The notes under the pieces: generated by a model | What the model was told of the DNA's origin: nothing | What the model saw: only the letters and a program-made list of their open reading frames with translations | The model's database searches: none | Position numbers and translations under genes: made by a program | From: Methanocaldococcus jannaschii DSM 2661 | GTDB lineage: Archaea; AGJL01; Methanococci; Methanococcales; Methanocaldococcaceae | Reading direction: 5' to 3' | DNA: 32,000 bases | Assembly: GCF_000091665.1 (NCBI RefSeq) | Contig: NC_000909.1 | Span: 730,712-762,711 of the forward strand | In this document: piece after piece, positions 94-19,392 of the stretch | Position numbering within the stretch: position 1 is the first letter of the stretch | Layout: each line of letters opens with the position of its first letter

Positions 94-1095
94 ATGAGAG
101 AAGCAATGTTCTATGAAAAATTAGATGACAATAAGGTTAGATGCCATATCTGTCCAAGACACTGTATTATAAAAGAAGGGGAGAGGGGTTTTTGTTGGAA
201 TAGAGAAAATATCAATGGAGTTTTATATGCTGTTGGTTATGGGAAAGTTTGTTCTTTAGCAATTGACCCAATAGAAAAAAAGCCATTATTCCACTTCTAT
301 CCAACAACTCAAGTAGTTTCTTTAGCAATTGGAGGATGTAACTTTAGATGTTTGCACTGCCAAAATTGGACAATTTCTCAATTTCCGCCAGATGAAATTC
401 CTTATAGAGAGATGACACCAGAAGAGATTGTTGAAGTTGCTATAAGATACAACTGCCCCGGAATATCTTACACCTATACAGAACCAACAGTATATTATGA
501 GTTCATGTATGACACTTCAGTTATAGCAAGGGAAAATGGAATGTTCAATGTAATGATAACCAACGGCTATATTGAGAAAGAGCCATTAAAAGCCCTTCCA
601 GTGGATGCAATGAATATAGATATTAAAGGGAATGCTGATTTTTATAAGAAAGTGTGTAAAGCTACGTTAGAGCCTGTCTTAGAAACCTGCAAATTAGCAA
701 AAAAATTAGGAATTTGGGTAGAGGTAACGAATTTAATTGTTCCTAACTACAATGACAACATAGATGATTTATTATTTATAATACACTTTGTAAGGGATGA
801 GTTAGGGAGAGAAACCCCTCTACACTTCTCAAGGTTTCATCCAGATTATAAACTAACTGATGTTCCTCCAACGCCTATAGAAACCTTAGAGATGGCAAGG
901 AATTTGGCTATAGAAGAGGGGCTTAAGTATGTTTATATTGGAAATGTTCCAGGGCATGAGGGAGAAAACACTTATTGCCCAAACTGTGGAGCTTTGTTGA
1001 TAGAAAGATATATATTCAACGCCAAAATAATTAATTTAGATGTAGAAACTAAAAGATGTAAGATTTGTGGAGAGAAGATTGATATAGTTTTATAA
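94..1095 (+). CDS. Radical SAM enzyme, AmmeMemoRadiSam-system / PflA-like activase family
   Basis: 333-aa ORF with the CxxxCxxC motif CNFRCLHCQNW. It also has an N-terminal Cys cluster (CHICPRHC..FC) and a C-terminal zinc-ribbon-like CPNCG...CKICG. An SD-like AGAGGG lies just upstream of the ATG. AMMECR1 lies 1.8 kb downstream on the same strand. Confidence 0.85.
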   Translation: MREAMFYEKLDDNKVRCHICPRHCIIKEGERGFCWNRENINGVLYAVGYGKVCSLAIDPIEKKPLFHFYPTTQVVSLAIGGCNFRCLHCQNWTISQFPPDEIPYREMTPEEIVEVAIRYNCPGISYTYTEPTVYYEFMYDTSVIARENGMFNVMITNGYIEKEPLKALPVDAMNIDIKGNADFYKKVCKATLEPVLETCKLAKKLGIWVEVTNLIVPNYNDNIDDLLFIIHFVRDELGRETPLHFSRFHPDYKLTDVPPTPIETLEMARNLAIEEGLKYVYIGNVPGHEGENTYCPNCGALLIERYIFNAKIINLDVETKRCKICGEKIDIVL

Positions 1096-1226
1096 TGTAA
1101 TATTTTTTATGATTTTGAGGATTATGAAGGTAGTTAGAGATTCAAAAAATGAGTTGAAAAAGAAAGAAGCTAAATAACTTTGGATAGGTTTTTAGACAAA
1201 GATAAATGAGAATATTTACTATTATA

Positions 1227-1643
1227 TTAAATTTTGAGATCTTTTTCTATCATTCGTATTTCTTGCTTAATTTTTATTATTTGATCCTCCATCATTACTA
1301 ATTGTTTCATTAGCTGTATATTTTTTTCTATTTCTCTCATAAAACTTTCTGCAAAGATCCTGCCAATGCCACTATGTGAATCAAGATATTCGCACATGTC
1401 TTCAAATGTTTTACTATAGATCATATTACTTCTGTTAGATTCTACTCTTAGTATATCAAATTCTATTGAATATATTTGTCGTTTTATTTTTTGAATCGTC
1501 TGATTTTGTTGATCTGATAAATTATTCTGCTCTATAATTTGTATTTGTTTCTTAATTTGTGTTATTTGTTGATTTAGTTCTTGTATCTTTTGCGTCATTT
1601 TCTCTCGAATTTTATCATAATCATTCTTAATCTCCTTAAGCAT
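1227..1643 (-). CDS. Hypothetical Gln-rich coiled-coil protein (orphan, atypical composition)
   Basis: 138-codon stop-free ORF in roughly 22-25% GC DNA. GGTGATAAG sits immediately 5' of the ATG. Heptad-like I/L/Q/K repeats occur at both ends. 17 Gln in 138 aa, which is atypical for this window. No family recognised. Confidence 0.55.
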   Translation of the reverse strand: MLKEIKNDYDKIREKMTQKIQELNQQITQIKKQIQIIEQNNLSDQQNQTIQKIKRQIYSIEFDILRVESNRSNMIYSKTFEDMCEYLDSHSGIGRIFAESFMREIEKNIQLMKQLVMMEDQIIKIKQEIRMIEKDLKI

Positions 1644-1847
1644 CTTATCACCACATAGGGAATTAATTATCCATATTCACTTTTCCCTAGATTTAATAAC
1701 TAAGTAGTGCAATAACTTTAACTTAATCAAGGACTTGTCCGCTTTTATTACATGGTTTATATACTCAACAAAAAAGTACTGTTCTAAAAGCGAAACATCA
1801 TAAGATATGCATTGATGGCATGTTATCTTAAATTATATTCTTCTTTT

Positions 1848-2105
1848 TTATTTAATTACGATATTTGCTGACTCGGGTATCCAATATTTATGTTGAATCC
1901 ATGACGGATTGACATATCTATCAGAAGTAAGTGTGAATGGTGTATTAGCATTCTGCACTTTTTGAATATTTGTCATATTATTGCTACTCCCCCAAATAGC
2001 AATTTTTCCTTTATCAGTTTCACATTCGATATATGCACCTTTTGAAACATATTTTATTGGGCTTATTTTTTTGACTACAAAGGTTATAGATTGCATTACA
2101 ACCAT
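1848..2105 (-). CDS. Hypothetical small protein (85 aa; N/S/T/W-rich, orphan)
   Basis: ORF with GAGGGGAATT immediately 5' of the ATG; an alternative start is Met4. Composition is unlike the K/E/I-rich neighbours. No family recognised. Confidence 0.4.
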   Translation of the reverse strand: MVVMQSITFVVKKISPIKYVSKGAYIECETDKGKIAIWGSSNNMTNIQKVQNANTPFTLTSDRYVNPSWIQHKYWIPESANIVIK

Positions 2106-2324
2106 AATTCCCCTCTCTTTTTGATTTTAGTAGGTATCAAACATCAATTTTTGAACAATTATGCTTATAAAAATCAATAAAAATTCTATATCAAATTATA
2201 TAAATATATTACTAAATTGTTTTTTTTTTGCCACACTTTTCCACAATTAAAGAATTTTAAAGGTGTAAATCAACCAAAAACTATAACTATAATCAACACA
2301 AAATAACTTATTATGGTGATAATT

Positions 2325-2816
2325 ATGCCAACAACTTATGAGTTAAAAATTTACGGAAAAGTTCAACACGTAGGATTTAGAGATAGAATTGAAAATATTG
2401 GAAAAGGTTTAGGCATTAATGGGATTATTTATAACTATAAGGATGGGACTGTTAGAATCTTAGCAAACTTTGATGATGAGGAAGATAAAGAATTATTTAA
2501 AAAATACATTGAGAGGTTAGAAAAGAAAGATAAATTAATTGAAATTGAAAAAATAGAAGAAAAAAGATTAAATACTTACATTGAGTTTCCAGAAGGTATT
2601 AGTAGATTGTCCTCTGATGATATATTGGAATTAAACAAAAAATTAGATGAAGGAGTTAAATACATAAAGCTAATATTTGCTGAATTAGAAGAGCATAAAA
2701 AAGTGTTATTGGAAATTAAGGATATGCATGTAAAAACAGTTGAAATATTAAGTGAGCATACAAGAATACTAAATGAAATTAAAGACACTCTAAAGGATAT
2801 AAAAGATAAACTTTAA
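2325..2816 (+). CDS. Acylphosphatase-like domain protein with C-terminal coiled-coil extension
   Basis: N-terminal [14 protein letters not shown] and [13 protein letters not shown] match the two acylphosphatase signature segments. I place the start at ATG 2325 because the track start at 2313 is the AT of ATGGTGAT, i.e. it lies inside the SD GGTGAT (2315-2320). Confidence 0.75.
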
Positions 2817-2835
2817 AAATATTCTTTAAAAATAT

Positions 2836-2897
2836 TAACGCGATGATGAGTGCCGACTTCACTGAACTGTGATGAAACCTGGGACAGCTGAGCGTTA
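2836..2897 (+). ncRNA. Archaeal C/D-box sRNA (2'-O-methylation guide)
   Basis: C box ATGATGA 2843-2849. 12-nt guide GTGCCGACTTCA 2850-2861. D' box CTGA 2862-2865. 3-nt loop. C' box GTGATGA 2869-2875. 12-nt guide AACCTGGGACAG 2876-2887. D box CTGA 2888-2891. Terminal stem TAACGC (2836-2841) pairs with GCGTTA (2892-2897). The spacing is canonical for archaeal sRNAs. Confidence 0.88.
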
Positions 2898-2940
2898 CTA
2901 TTTCTTTAGTTATTTTTATCAATTTTTATTGGTGGGAATT

Positions 2941-3546
2941 ATGAGACTATTAACCTTAGAAGAAGGAACTTTTGCTGTAAGATATGCAAGAGCAGTTATA
3001 GAAAATTATTTGGCTGGTAAAAAAATAGTTATAGAGAGTTATCCAGAGGTATTTAATGAAAAAAGGGGATGTTTTTGCACATTACATACTTATCCAGATA
3101 AAGAACTTAGAGGTTGTATAGGGATTCCAGAACCAATAATGCCATTAATTGAGGCTTTAGAGGAGGCAGCAATAAGTGCGGCAACAAAAGACCCAAGGTT
3201 TCCTCCAGTAACATTGGAAGAGATGGATAGCATCGTGGTTGAGGTAAGTATATTAACTCCTCCAGAACTTATTAAAGTTAATCATCCAAAAGAGTATTTG
3301 GAAAAAATAAAAATTGGTAGAGATGGCTTAATTATTGAATATGGCTTTTATAGAGGGCTTTTATTGCCACAAGTGCCAGTAGAGTATGGATGGGATGTTG
3401 AAGAGTATTTAGCTCATCTCTGCTTAAAAGCTGGACTACCACCAGATATGTGGCTGGCTGAGGGAGTTAAGATTTATAGGTTTGAAGCTCAAATATTTGA
3501 AGAGGTTGAGCCAAGAGGAGAAGTTATTGAGAAAAAATTGCTTTAG
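2941..3546 (+). CDS. AMMECR1 domain protein (AmmeMemoRadiSam system protein A)
   Basis: RGCFCTLH...LRGCIGIPEP is the AMMECR1 hallmark (C-x-G motif), followed by LLPQVP. I place the start at ATG 2941 (MRLLTLEEG), preceded by GGTGGGAATT. The track's 2869 GTG start lies inside the C/D sRNA. Confidence 0.9.
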   Translation: MRLLTLEEGTFAVRYARAVIENYLAGKKIVIESYPEVFNEKRGCFCTLHTYPDKELRGCIGIPEPIMPLIEALEEAAISAATKDPRFPPVTLEEMDSIVVEVSILTPPELIKVNHPKEYLEKIKIGRDGLIIEYGFYRGLLLPQVPVEYGWDVEEYLAHLCLKAGLPPDMWLAEGVKIYRFEAQIFEEVEPRGEVIEKKLL

Positions 3547-3643
3547 AATAGGATTTATTACAGTTTATATATTGAATAGGGTATTTAGATTCCCTTTTGG
3601 GCATCAACTTTCCCTTAAACATTTTATTATTGTGATTTAAGAT

Positions 3644-4963
3644 TTAAGATATAGATTTATAAATCTTCCTTGCCTCTTCATCTGCCAAATCATAAACCTT
3701 TATTACCTCATCAGAAATAGCCTTTAAAGTTTCAGTTGGGAATGTTTCAACAAACACAGAGATTAATTTAGCATTATACTCATTTTTAAACTTATCAAAC
3801 TCTTTTAAAAATACATCATTCACTTCAGCATAACCGTCAGTTATAAGCAAGATGTCAGCATTTTTAAATGTCTCATGCTCTTTTATTATACTCATAGCCC
3901 TATTCAACGGCATTATAAAGTTTGTTCCTCCACCAAAATATAATGATGCTATTTCAATTATTTCATCAAATGTTATAGTTTTTGGATTTATCTTCTTCTC
4001 AAATCTAACTCCATCATCAAAGGCAATGTAGTAGATATCTCTATTTTCCCTCTTGGCAATCTCTATTATGGATAAAGCAACGGCCTTCCCCCAAATCTCC
4101 CTATCTCCATACATTGAACCACTGTGGTCTAATAAAATAATTATAGGTCCTTTCTGCTTCTCCAACTTATTCTGAATATCATAGATTAAGAGCTTTTTAT
4201 CAACGAATCTTCTTAAAAAGTCATAATATAGAATCTCATCTGAAAGATTGACGATTTCTTTTGGAAGTAGATGCTTTAAATCCCTCCCAATTTTTGTTGA
4301 ATAAATTTCTCCAGAGTAGTGCTTAATCTTTGATTTATATTCATTTATAGCCAACAATCTCAACTTACCAAGTTTTTTAACAATCTCTCTAATCTTTTTG
4401 TTTTGCAAGATTTTATCTGCCAACTTTATCCTATCCTCTGGCGATAGTAGCTTTTTATCTCCCTCCCCTTTCCCAAAGTTTTCAACGGCATTGAATCCTT
4501 GTATAACTTCAGAAACCTCCTCTGCTATATCTTTCATAGTATTTTTGGCTATTTCTTTTAATTTATCCTCTAACCCCTCTCCTTTTCCTTCAGATGCAAA
4601 TTTCTTTAACTCTTTATTTAGTTTTGCAAGTTTTAAGTTTTCAAAGAATTTCTCACAGAACATTATTGTGGCAGTTCCAGCATTTACCTCATCCAGTTCA
4701 GTTAATAGCTTACTCTTCTCATACTCAATATTTTTTATAGCTCCCTCTAATATAGCCTTGTTTATCTTAAATTTTTCTTCAACATACTCATTGAATTCAA
4801 CAACATATTTAAAGAATGCATAAAATGTGTCTTCAGCCAATTTTTCATGAATTGGATGATATTGAGAATAATAACTAATGAGTTTTTGCAAATATTTGCT
4901 GTTCTTTAAAAATCTCTCATAAGCCTTTTTATCATAAGCATCGTGCTTTATAATGTTTTTCAT
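3644..4963 (-). CDS. ViaA-like von Willebrand factor A (VWA) domain protein
   Basis: C-terminal VWA domain with the MIDAS motif ILLDHSGSM, plus GGGTNF and LLITDG. The N-terminal helical region is long. The start is 3 nt after the stop of the RavA-like ATPase. Confidence 0.8.
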   Translation of the reverse strand: MKNIIKHDAYDKKAYERFLKNSKYLQKLISYYSQYHPIHEKLAEDTFYAFFKYVVEFNEYVEEKFKINKAILEGAIKNIEYEKSKLLTELDEVNAGTATIMFCEKFFENLKLAKLNKELKKFASEGKGEGLEDKLKEIAKNTMKDIAEEVSEVIQGFNAVENFGKGEGDKKLLSPEDRIKLADKILQNKKIREIVKKLGKLRLLAINEYKSKIKHYSGEIYSTKIGRDLKHLLPKEIVNLSDEILYYDFLRRFVDKKLLIYDIQNKLEKQKGPIIILLDHSGSMYGDREIWGKAVALSIIEIAKRENRDIYYIAFDDGVRFEKKINPKTITFDEIIEIASLYFGGGTNFIMPLNRAMSIIKEHETFKNADILLITDGYAEVNDVFLKEFDKFKNEYNAKLISVFVETFPTETLKAISDEVIKVYDLADEEARKIYKSIS

Positions 4964-18126: not shown

Positions 18127-19392
18127 ATGGCATCAACTGATTCAAAACAATTATATTTATTTAAAAAGATGTTGAAAGAATTAAAATCTAAGAAAGGTAA
18201 GGGGACTGAGCTTATCAGCCTTTATATTCCAGCAGGTAGAAGGATATCTGATGTAGCTCAGCATTTAAGGGAGGAGATGTCACAGGCATCAAACATTAAA
18301 AGTAAAAGCACAAGGAAAAATGTTCAATCAGCAATAGAGGCAATTTTGCAGAGATTAAAGTTATTAAAAGAGCCATTAGAGAAAGGAGTTGTTATATTCG
18401 CTGGAATGGTTCCAAGAAGTGGGCCTGGAACAGAAAAGATGGAAACCTACGTTATAGAGCCACCAGAACCAATAAAAACATACATCTATAGATGTGATTC
18501 AGAATTTTATTTAGAGCCGTTAGAGGAATTCTTAGAGGATAAAGATGCGTATGGAGTTATATTGGTTGATAGAAACGAAGCTACAATAGCGTTAGTTAAA
18601 GGTAGAAACATAAATATCTTAAAAAAACTAACAAGTGGAGTTCCTGGAAAGTTTAAAGCAGGAGGGCAGTCAGCAAGAAGATTAGAAAGGCTTATAGATT
18701 TAGCCGCTCATGAGTTCTTGCAGAGAGTTGGGCAGAAGGCAAATGAGCAATTCCTTCCATTATTGCAAGAGAAAAAACTTAGAGGAATCTTAGTTGGAGG
18801 GCCAGGACATACAAAGAATGAGTTTGTTGAAGGAGATTACTTACACCATGAACTTAAAAAGATTGTATTGGATACATTTGATTTATGCTATACAGAGGAG
18901 TTTGGTATAAGAGAGCTCTTAGAGAAAGCAGCTCCATTATTAAAGGATGTTGAGTTGATGAAAGAGAGAGAAGCTGTTCAGAGATTTTTAAAGGAATTAA
19001 TTAAAGAGGATGGAGGATTAGCTTGCTATGGAGAGAAAGAGGTTTTAGAGGCTTTAATGATGGGAGCTGTTGATACTTTAATTGTTTCTGAAGAATTGGA
19101 GAAATATAAGGTAAAGATAGCATGTAACAATTGCGATTACTTAGAGGAAAAAACTGTCAATAAGCTTGAGCTTATTAAATTGGAAGAAGAGCTTAAAAAT
19201 GCCCAATGCCCAAAATGTGGAGGAGCTTTAAGTATCGTTGAGGAAAAAGACTATATTGAATACCTCTCAGAACTATGTGAGCAGAGCGGGGCTAAACTTG
19301 TAACAGTTTCATCAGAAACAGAAGAAGGGGCTATGATTTTAAATGCATTTAAGGGAATAGCCGCTATATTGAGATATAAGATTCATCAATAA
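18127..19392 (+). CDS. prf1: Peptide chain release factor aRF1
   Basis: NIKS motif (ASNIKSKS), GGQ motif (KAGGQSARR), and a C-terminal Zn-ribbon insert (CNNCD...CPKCGG). ATG 18127 lies behind SD GGTGAT. The track's 18115 is the ATG of ATGGTGAT. Confidence 0.92.
   Translation: MASTDSKQLYLFKKMLKELKSKKGKGTELISLYIPAGRRISDVAQHLREEMSQASNIKSKSTRKNVQSAIEAILQRLKLLKEPLEKGVVIFAGMVPRSGPGTEKMETYVIEPPEPIKTYIYRCDSEFYLEPLEEFLEDKDAYGVILVDRNEATIALVKGRNINILKKLTSGVPGKFKAGGQSARRLERLIDLAAHEFLQRVGQKANEQFLPLLQEKKLRGILVGGPGHTKNEFVEGDYLHHELKKIVLDTFDLCYTEEFGIRELLEKAAPLLKDVELMKEREAVQRFLKELIKEDGGLACYGEKEVLEALMMGAVDTLIVSEELEKYKVKIACNNCDYLEEKTVNKLELIKLEEELKNAQCPKCGGALSIVEEKDYIEYLSELCEQSGAKLVTVSSETEEGAMILNAFKGIAAILRYKIHQ

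Follow-up and report, generated by a model that had tools for sequence, protein, structure and literature searches.

A variable accessory islet next to AMMECR1 in Methanocaldococcus jannaschii encodes a rare predicted OB-fold protein and an orphan protein of probable coiled-coil type

The 32,000-nucleotide stretch of the Methanocaldococcus jannaschii DSM 2661 genome considered here (contig NC_000909.1, positions 730,712 to 762,711; hereafter the window, in whose coordinates positions are given unless a homolog or relative is named) contains a radical-SAM gene and AMMECR1 on the plus strand. Between them lie two short open reading frames (ORFs) on the minus strand, encoding proteins of 138 and 85 amino acids and separated by 204 nt, together with a plus-strand gene for a 167-aa protein and a C/D-box small RNA (sRNA; Table 1). 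These two ORFs and the variable site in which they lie are the subject of this report. An earlier sequence-only reading of this DNA had described them as an orphan island, consistent with a horizontally acquired module, whose proteins differ in composition from those of thermophiles. Their sizes, the gap between them, their glutamine counts, the GC content of individual sequence lines, the inverted repeat upstream of the 138-aa ORF and the Shine-Dalgarno (SD) strings (GGTGATAAG-ATG and GAGGGGAATT-ATG) were all recovered as that reading gave them.

Table 1. Features of the radical-SAM/AMMECR1 locus in window coordinates (MAG, metagenome-assembled genome).
Feature	Position	Strand	Remark or basis
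Radical-SAM gene	94-1095	+	Left flank
Variable region, ~1.72 kb	1096-2814		blastn, junctions read directly, tblastn
Nested 974-bp indel, absent from MAG L010	1136-2109 (equally 1134-2107; TT at both junctions)		Alignment
T6 and T5 runs	1144-1161	-	66-83 nt past the 138-aa stop; candidate archaeal terminators (inferred)
138-aa ORF	1227-1643	-	Gln-rich ORFan without Pro; heptad-periodic arms; core with Gly92/Gly94 (SGIG) motif
SD GGTGAT	1647-1652	-	3 nt before the ATG of the 138-aa ORF; read from sequence
7-bp inverted repeat TAGGGAA/TTCCCTA	1656-1662 / 1683-1689		Leader of the 138-aa ORF; chance level
TATA-like box TATATAAA	1756-1763	-	~115 nt before the 138-aa start codon; candidate promoter for this gene alone
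T6 run	1770-1775	-	73 nt past the 85-aa stop; candidate terminator between the two genes
85-aa ORF	1848-2105	-	Predicted single-domain OB-fold protein; family rare and unannotated
53-bp leader of the 85-aa gene, including SD GAGGGG (2110-2115)	2108-2160	-	Kept in L010, 100% identity
51-bp AT-rich segment, absent from L010	2161-2211	-	Contains the two TATA-like boxes of the next row
Two TATA-like boxes upstream of the 85-aa gene	2197-2204 and 2166-2173	-	Sequence only
167-aa ORF	2313-2816	+	Acylphosphatase-like N-terminal domain (Pfam E 4.6e-14) and C-terminal coiled coil
C/D-box sRNA	2839-2894	+	Rfam RF00095, 43.4 bits vs gathering score 45, E 3e-7
AMMECR1	2941-3546	+	Right flank

Read along the minus strand, the TATA-like boxes are followed by the leader with its SD sequence and the 85-aa ORF, and then by a T6 run, a further TATA-like box, a second SD sequence, the 138-aa ORF and T5 and T6 runs. 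Arranged in this way, the signals suggest that each gene is transcribed on its own and that the two do not make up an operon. The inverted repeat in the leader of the 138-aa ORF, which the sequence-only reading had singled out, is equalled in 22% of leader shuffles, and it was dropped as a candidate regulatory element because it lies at chance level.

The same reading held that stop-free ORFs of this length are unlikely to arise by chance in such AT-rich DNA. This is borne out for the longer frame, since none of 2000 dinucleotide shuffles of positions 1096-2312 contained an ORF of at least 138 aa, but it does not extend to the shorter one, because ORFs of at least 85 aa appeared in 6.5% of the shuffles and the length of this ORF is not significant. 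The 85-aa ORF is accepted as a gene because conserved homologs exist.

To place the locus among its relatives, the radical-SAM protein was used as a query against one genome per species. At least four close relatives with 86-88% nucleotide identity were found, namely Methanocaldococcus sp. 16A (L007), Methanocaldococcus sp. 28A (L009) and two MAGs (L008 and L010). The alignments of 16A, 28A and L008 cover positions 46-1106 of the window and resume at 2815-2825, and the stretch missing from all three is 1096-2814, including the 167-aa gene. At this empty site, the C/D-box sRNA lies approximately 15-45 nt after the radical-SAM stop codon and is followed by AMMECR1 and the next gene. The earlier proposal that the islet splits a radical-SAM/AMMECR1 pair is therefore supported, as the succession of radical-SAM gene, sRNA and AMMECR1 is intact in the closest relatives listed. 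Borders had been expected near positions 1100 and 2310; they are sharp and the left one lies at 1096, but the right one is displaced to 2814, with the 167-aa gene inside the variable region and a smaller indel nested within it. A tblastn search found neither minus-strand protein in any Methanocaldococcus locus among the relatives listed. In two more distant genomes, L011 and M. indicus, the radical-SAM gene is followed by other core genes.

The fourth close relative, L010, presents a different arrangement. It aligns with the window through position 1135, continues directly with 2108-2160 (53/53 nucleotides identical), lacks the next 51 bp and resumes at 2212-2315 (87.5% identity) up to the end of its contig, which coincides with the ATG of the 167-aa gene. 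The nested indel thus contains both minus-strand genes, the T run and TATA-like box between them and the T runs after the 138-aa ORF. Its right edge falls 2-4 nt from the ATG of the 85-aa ORF, while the SD sequence and the 53-bp leader lie outside it and survive in L010. Because the SD sequence is kept, the state of L010 looks like a secondary deletion and not like the ancestral site into which M. jannaschii received a new insertion; two deletions starting from an occupied site would be simpler than two insertions that supplied a promoter and an ORF around an existing SD sequence. The 53-bp stretch (L010 positions 3503-3555) is completely identical between two indels in flanks of approximately 87% identity. 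The probability of this identity is approximately 0.1 after correction for the number of candidate positions, and it may reflect chance or a constrained leader or promoter element.

A tree of the radical-SAM gene pairs L010 with L008 (91%) and 16A with 28A (93%) as sisters and places M. jannaschii roughly equidistant from all four. Presence and absence of the genes disagree with this tree, a pattern that marks the site as a hot spot where DNA is gained, lost or exchanged.

Both minus-strand genes also stand apart from the rest of the window in the composition of their products, as had been claimed. Glutamine makes up 17 of the 138 residues of the longer protein (12.3%), against a mean of 1.3% and a maximum of 3.7% in 23 reference genes of the window; for comparison, the S-layer protein contains 3 glutamines and a 425-aa protein contains 14, and the proportions in the 85-aa and 167-aa proteins are 4.7% and 0.6%. 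For the charged-minus-polar index (CvP), the 85-aa protein has a value of -11.8 and the 138-aa protein one of 5.8, compared with 13.9 +/- 6.8 (minimum -0.4) for the host genes (n=23) and 28.1 for the 167-aa protein. The value of the 85-aa protein matches its homologs (-3.5 to -14), not the host. At the nucleotide level, the sequence lines at 1261-1320 and 1501-1560 have 25.0% and 21.7% GC and the line at 18301-18360 has 33.3%, yet the dip across the islet is mild (26-31% vs 34-36% in the flanking genes), and the GC content at third codon positions (GC3; 0.232 and 0.235 vs a host mean of 0.239) and the codon adaptation index (0.669 and 0.692 vs 0.713 +/- 0.034) are close to those of the host, inside its range or at the edge of it. 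Since synonymous codon use is near that of the host and the residues deviate, the anomaly lies mainly in amino-acid composition and not in codon choice. A combined codon and amino-acid log-likelihood score gave 0.12 for the 138-aa ORF and 0.15 for the 85-aa ORF, compared with a minimum of 0.26 among host genes; both ORFs score far above their own alternative frames.

The description of the pair as orphans was correct for only one of the two proteins, since the 85-aa protein belongs to a rare family and the 138-aa protein retrieved nothing except itself. A search of 5.8 billion proteins returned three homologs of the 85-aa protein at 59-62% identity, none of them archaeal. A search with the family profile yielded 11 proteins at E <= 1, including the query and one distant member at 33% identity, and a metagenome scan added three further loci, one of which encodes a fusion; in all, the family comprises approximately 12 sequences from metagenomes. 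Full-length family members share 53-65% amino-acid and 68-75% nucleotide identity with the M. jannaschii copy, which is intact in that all invariant residues (F9, C28, T30, W38, G39, S40, and N46) are kept. Positions C28, T30, H72 and W38-G39-S40 are characteristic of the family, and the single cysteine and single histidine are retained even in the homolog with 33% identity. Their retention is unusual for an OB (oligonucleotide/oligosaccharide-binding) fold that simply binds single-stranded DNA, and could mark a ligand, metal or catalytic site.

Nothing meaningful was matched by the 85-aa protein in Pfam, NCBIfam, PADLOC (PADLOC-DB 2.0) or PHROGs, and none of 10 family members matched any Pfam family beyond chance, OB families such as PF01336 included. 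The best hit of the family profile among PDB sequences (E 0.06) was to XPA, which is not an OB fold. An AlphaFold2 model computed from a four-sequence alignment had a mean predicted local distance difference test (pLDDT) score of only 65 and gave meaningless Foldseek matches. The model from a 10-sequence alignment reached a pLDDT of 92.3 and a predicted TM-score (pTM) of 0.80, with the topology beta1-beta2-beta3-helix-beta4-beta5 (strands at residues 7-14, 23-30, 33-40, 57-61 and 82-84, short extra strands at 18-20 and 74-76, and a helix at 45-51). This is a five-stranded closed beta-barrel with a helix between beta3 and beta4, as in OB folds. In Foldseek searches of the PDB, the leading matches were almost all OB domains, with a probability of approximately 1.0 and TM-scores on the query of up to 0.70, and a viral structure library gave the same generic OB picture. 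Assignment of the predicted structure to the OB fold class is thus well supported. The top matches are nucleic-acid-binding OB folds, including the HIN domains of p202, AIM2 and IFI16 (0.70), RPA, the Methanothermobacter thermautotrophicus RFA-related protein 2k50 (0.65) and the anticodon domain of LysRS. We infer from the fold class and the conserved aromatic residues that the 85-aa protein may bind single-stranded or structured nucleic acid, and that the binding face would be the usual one of OB folds, formed by beta2, beta3 and the long loop before beta5 with Y25, W38, W69, H72 and W75.

Two groups of known proteins are instructive for comparison. Stand-alone or RPA-type OB folds (RPA/SSB and tRNA_anti-like), for example 2k50, share with the 85-aa protein the five-stranded barrel, the helix between beta3 and beta4, a size of approximately 85-110 aa and conserved aromatic residues on beta2, beta3 and the loop before beta5, and RPA domains align with TM-scores of 0.52-0.64 on the query. 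Unlike RPA and single-strand-binding proteins, the 85-aa protein has no sequence similarity to OB families of Pfam or to PDB sequences, and unlike single-strand-binding proteins its family has an invariant Cys28/Thr30/His72 set and no replication or repair genes in its context. HIN-200 proteins (p202, AIM2, and IFI16) are vertebrate cytosolic DNA sensors, that is, DNA binders in an immune context, whose domains are tandem OB pairs of approximately 200 aa; to our knowledge, HIN domains are restricted to mammals. They are the best structural matches (root-mean-square deviation 2.2-2.4 A over approximately 88 columns), but with 11-20% sequence identity and E-values of 5e-3 the resemblance is one of fold and not of homology.

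The only relatives of the 85-aa gene were found on metagenome contigs that look bacterial, with lipoprotein, GGDEF, RHS and CopA-like genes and strong AGGAGG SD sequences. Four of the homolog loci extend for several kb upstream, and in three of these four the same-strand genes directly upstream of the OB gene match defence models of PADLOC. In L001, these are a NERD-helicase and a UvrD/GajB-like helicase (RT-associated NERD-helicase model, 1e-43), in L006 a two-gene cluster (NsnA, 2e-66, or PD-T4-2_A, 2e-48, with PD-T4-2_B), and in L089 a large helicase (PDC-S68, 1e-95). The fourth, L092, has no PADLOC match; near its OB gene and RHS toxin genes, it carries two tandem MutS2-like ATPases of approximately 510 aa each with GxNxGGKST motifs (543-3601, minus strand). 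The OB gene is lower in GC than its own contig in 8 of 9 loci. In these respects, the 85-aa homologs resemble accessory genes of bacterial defence islands, such as those beside DRT-type NERD-helicases, PD-T4-2/NsnA and PDC-S68: they lie directly downstream on the same strand, are AT-richer and have variable neighbours. Unlike such genes, the 85-aa family is included in no defence catalogue, and the neighbouring genes scanned in M. jannaschii included none recognised as a defence gene.

Nucleotide similarity among the loci, and between them and M. jannaschii, ends at the coding sequence, and comparison of the homolog loci found no conserved non-coding flanks of the OB gene. The gene downstream of the OB homolog differs in every locus, none resembles the 138-aa protein, and no partner gene is conserved. 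A small, variable ORF on the same strand closely follows the OB homolog in five of eight bacterial loci. The idea that these ORFs are integron cassettes was set aside, as visual inspection of a single spacer (L001, 6571-6688) showed no attC-like R''/R' pair, no systematic search having been made. Several of the neighbouring products have features of their own. For instance, an 84-aa ORF in L005 (640-894) starts 24 nt after the OB gene, contains a HNHRMPVCCEVM motif and has no Pfam or NCBIfam match. Two genes downstream of the OB gene, L001 (7018-7524) and likewise L002-L004 encode a 168-aa protein of CxxC...W/H repeats with approximately eight Cys pairs and no family match. In L093, on a contig of 60% GC, the OB domain is fused to a helical C-terminal domain of approximately 110 aa in a 210-aa protein (3513-4145) adjoining a multicopper oxidase/CopB-like pair. 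The fusion was rejected as a Rosetta-stone link to the 138-aa protein because the two show no similarity (E 1.2) and the C-terminus has no family match.

Taken together, these data are best explained by an accessory-genome islet at a variable site that is not a recognisable system, a reading to which we assign a probability of roughly 60%. The normal order in the M. jannaschii clade is radical-SAM gene, C/D-box sRNA and AMMECR1, to which M. jannaschii adds 1.72 kb in two layers. The outer layer consists of the host-like 167-aa acylphosphatase-like gene and its upstream region, and the inner layer, approximately 0.97 kb long, of the two minus-strand genes, probably transcribed separately and of putatively foreign origin because of their non-hyperthermophile composition. 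At least the 85-aa gene is probably foreign, with an origin in bacterial defence islands, since its homologs stand mostly at the 3' end of recognised or candidate anti-phage clusters where the flank is long enough to tell, and it would have reached Methanocaldococcus by horizontal transfer, presumably from bacteria. The two genes would be neighbours by history and not a demonstrated functional pair. The suggestion of a horizontally acquired module can thus be kept as far as accessory DNA and the defence-type neighbours of the 85-aa homologs are concerned, and given up with respect to a functional pair, as no gene like the 138-aa one occurs at the homolog loci. The more specific suggestions of a viral, plasmid, defence or toxin-antitoxin-like pair find no support, since no toxin, antitoxin, defence, viral or plasmid family was matched; nothing in the analyses run marked the islet as an insertion sequence, virus or plasmid, or as a defence system or toxin-antitoxin pair.

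It should be noted that several observations weigh against this reading of the islet, or limit it. Foldseek E-values for the 85-aa model are weak (5e-3 to 1e-1), and they support the fold class alone, with no specific family or ligand. The association with defence genes comes from three contigs and is one of guilt by association, the remaining contigs being too short. The SD sequence shared with L010 implies that the genes were once present in that lineage as well, and an acquisition specific to M. jannaschii is not established. Codon use and GC3 like those of the host mean that any transfer was either old or from an equally AT-rich donor; together with the relic leader in L010, the host-like codon use suggests that the two genes have been in Methanocaldococcus for some time. 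Lastly, the score of the 138-aa ORF is below that of every host gene and within the range of spurious ORFs (maximum 0.14), and this ORF could be a decaying or non-functional reading frame.

This last point deserves closer attention. The 138-aa protein matched only itself in a word-indexed search of the 5.8 billion proteins and in a full HMMER search of 1.84 billion representatives, and no match was found among PDB sequences, plasmids, phages or viral contigs. It contains no proline, and glycine occurs at positions 92 and 94 only. In the best 28-residue windows of each arm (e.g., 8-42, 50-77, and 106-133), 88% of heptad a/d positions are hydrophobic, and a periodicity of 3.5 residues is detected with p = 0.02-0.04. 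Its most likely structure is a helical coiled coil, possibly a hairpin that turns at SGIG, and the protein probably associates with itself. Short coiled-coil proteins (V-type ATPase subunit D, FlxA, CdvA, and the IS110 linker) gave weak profile matches to it and share its heptad periodicity and high content of Ile, Lys, Glu and Gln, but all of these matches are below curated cut-offs and driven by composition; likewise, PADLOC-DB 2.0 returned coiled-coil noise alone (E >= 0.002). It is conceivable, though unlikely, that the ORF has no function and is a decaying or fortuitous frame in an A-rich, T-poor segment that accompanied the 85-aa gene. Such a frame would be expected to lack homologs among the representative proteins, to score like spurious ORFs and to be of low complexity, and the protein is indeed low in complexity and rich in Gln, Ile and Lys, with a glutamine content that is extreme for a hyperthermophile. 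It would not be expected to exceed every composition-preserving shuffle in length, to follow a perfect SD sequence at a distance of 3 nt, to be strongly favoured over the other five frames (0.12 vs -0.7 to -1.0) or to combine heptads in both arms with the absence of proline and the restriction of glycine to one short motif.

A further scenario, which we consider rather unlikely, is that the ancestor of the M. jannaschii clade already had the islet, which was then lost on several occasions, and that the odd composition reflects the function of the proteins. The leader and SD sequence that L010 retains without the gene point to a deletion. In codon use and GC3 the genes are equal to the host, and L010 is sister to L008, which lacks the whole region, so that presence and absence depart from the radical-SAM tree. 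Nevertheless, the same clean empty junction is found in three relatives belonging to two lineages of the radical-SAM tree, and the relatives of the 85-aa protein, 53-65% identical to it, are limited to contigs of bacterial appearance, with no archaeal homolog among 5.8 billion proteins. The CvP of the 85-aa protein, moreover, fits these homologs and not the host.

The two genes might instead be a functional two-component module (a toxin-antitoxin or minimal defence system), with the OB protein as the part that senses or binds nucleic acid and the coiled-coil protein as effector or regulator. They are adjacent, on the same strand and contained in one shared indel; homologs of the 85-aa protein occur in defence-type neighbourhoods; the small variable ORFs that follow the OB gene in bacteria could mean a conserved adaptor with a variable partner; and L093 joins the OB domain to a helical domain within one protein. 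We nonetheless regard this as improbable. Nothing resembling the 138-aa gene occurs at any homolog locus, the C-terminal domain of the L093 fusion is unlike the 138-aa protein, and PADLOC, Pfam, NCBIfam and PHROGs gave no match above threshold. The 204-nt gap with its T6 run and TATA-like box argues for separate transcription, unlike typical toxin-antitoxin operons, and neither protein has a recognisable toxin domain. Nor do the two genes fit a type II toxin-antitoxin pair, in which small, tightly linked and co-transcribed genes, one of them with a toxin fold in its product, stay paired across genomes.

A bolder and still less probable extension is that the 85-aa family represents unrecognised, very rare stand-alone OB proteins serving as a mobile anti-phage accessory, whether by sensing nucleic acid or acting as a decoy, or by countering viral single-strand-binding proteins, and that this accessory passed from bacteria to a hyperthermophilic archaeon and was paired there with a lineage-specific coiled-coil protein as a minimal two-gene system. 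Finally, the view that the segment is what remains of a mobile element (an IS110-type insertion sequence, provirus or integrated plasmid) is very improbable and largely refuted: the 138-aa protein weakly matches the same part of IS110 models in two libraries (NF033542, 155-241, E 5e-4; phrog_2199, 149-246, E 2e-3) and the right border of the region lies 25 nt from a small RNA gene, but the match reaches 19 bits against a cut-off of 140 and covers the coiled-coil linker region, Pfam DEDD_Tnp_IS110 and Transposase_20 do not match at E <= 1, an OB gene stands upstream where a remnant of the N-terminal catalytic domain would be expected, no terminal inverted repeats, integrase or repeat elsewhere in the window were found, and no relatives occur in 2.9 million viral contigs, 50,697 phage records or 72,556 plasmids. 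The origin of the 138-aa protein from an IS110 element was dropped on the same grounds, and of the marks of a virus or plasmid (hallmark genes, att repeats, and viral or plasmid relatives) none was seen, the PHROGs matches being noise alone.

Some features of the right-hand part of the locus should also be recorded. The 167-aa protein is strongly host-like in composition, yet its gene is absent from three close relatives. Its start is more likely at 2325, after a GGTGAT sequence, and its acylphosphatase-like domain retains the VQHVGFR motif and the Asn. Its coiled coil and that of the 138-aa protein are unrelated to each other and to anything else in the window. The C/D-box sRNA lies outside the variable region, 25 nt from its right border and 46 nt upstream of the AMMECR1 ATG, and both its sequence and its position are conserved in three relatives. 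An ORF with a GTG start (2869-3546), reported by the ORF finder, runs through this sRNA, indicating that the true start of AMMECR1 is the ATG at 2941.

With the islet, a model hyperthermophile is seen to have a small variable site in its genome, and a gene pair that has been listed as 'hypothetical' for 30 years is shown to be accessory DNA, outside the AmmeMemoRadiSam neighbourhood. It is a modest example of gene import and not a new system, and it would take proof of a function to change current understanding. With the 85-aa protein, a rare family with a predicted OB fold and no annotation, marked by an invariant Cys/Thr/Trp-Gly-Ser/His signature, joins the small genes that travel with bacterial defence islands. 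Being tiny, with a confident model and an invariant set of Cys, Thr, His and Trp residues, the protein is a candidate for functional testing, and its presence in M. jannaschii offers a natural test of how a protein with a mesophile-like composition survives at 85 °C.

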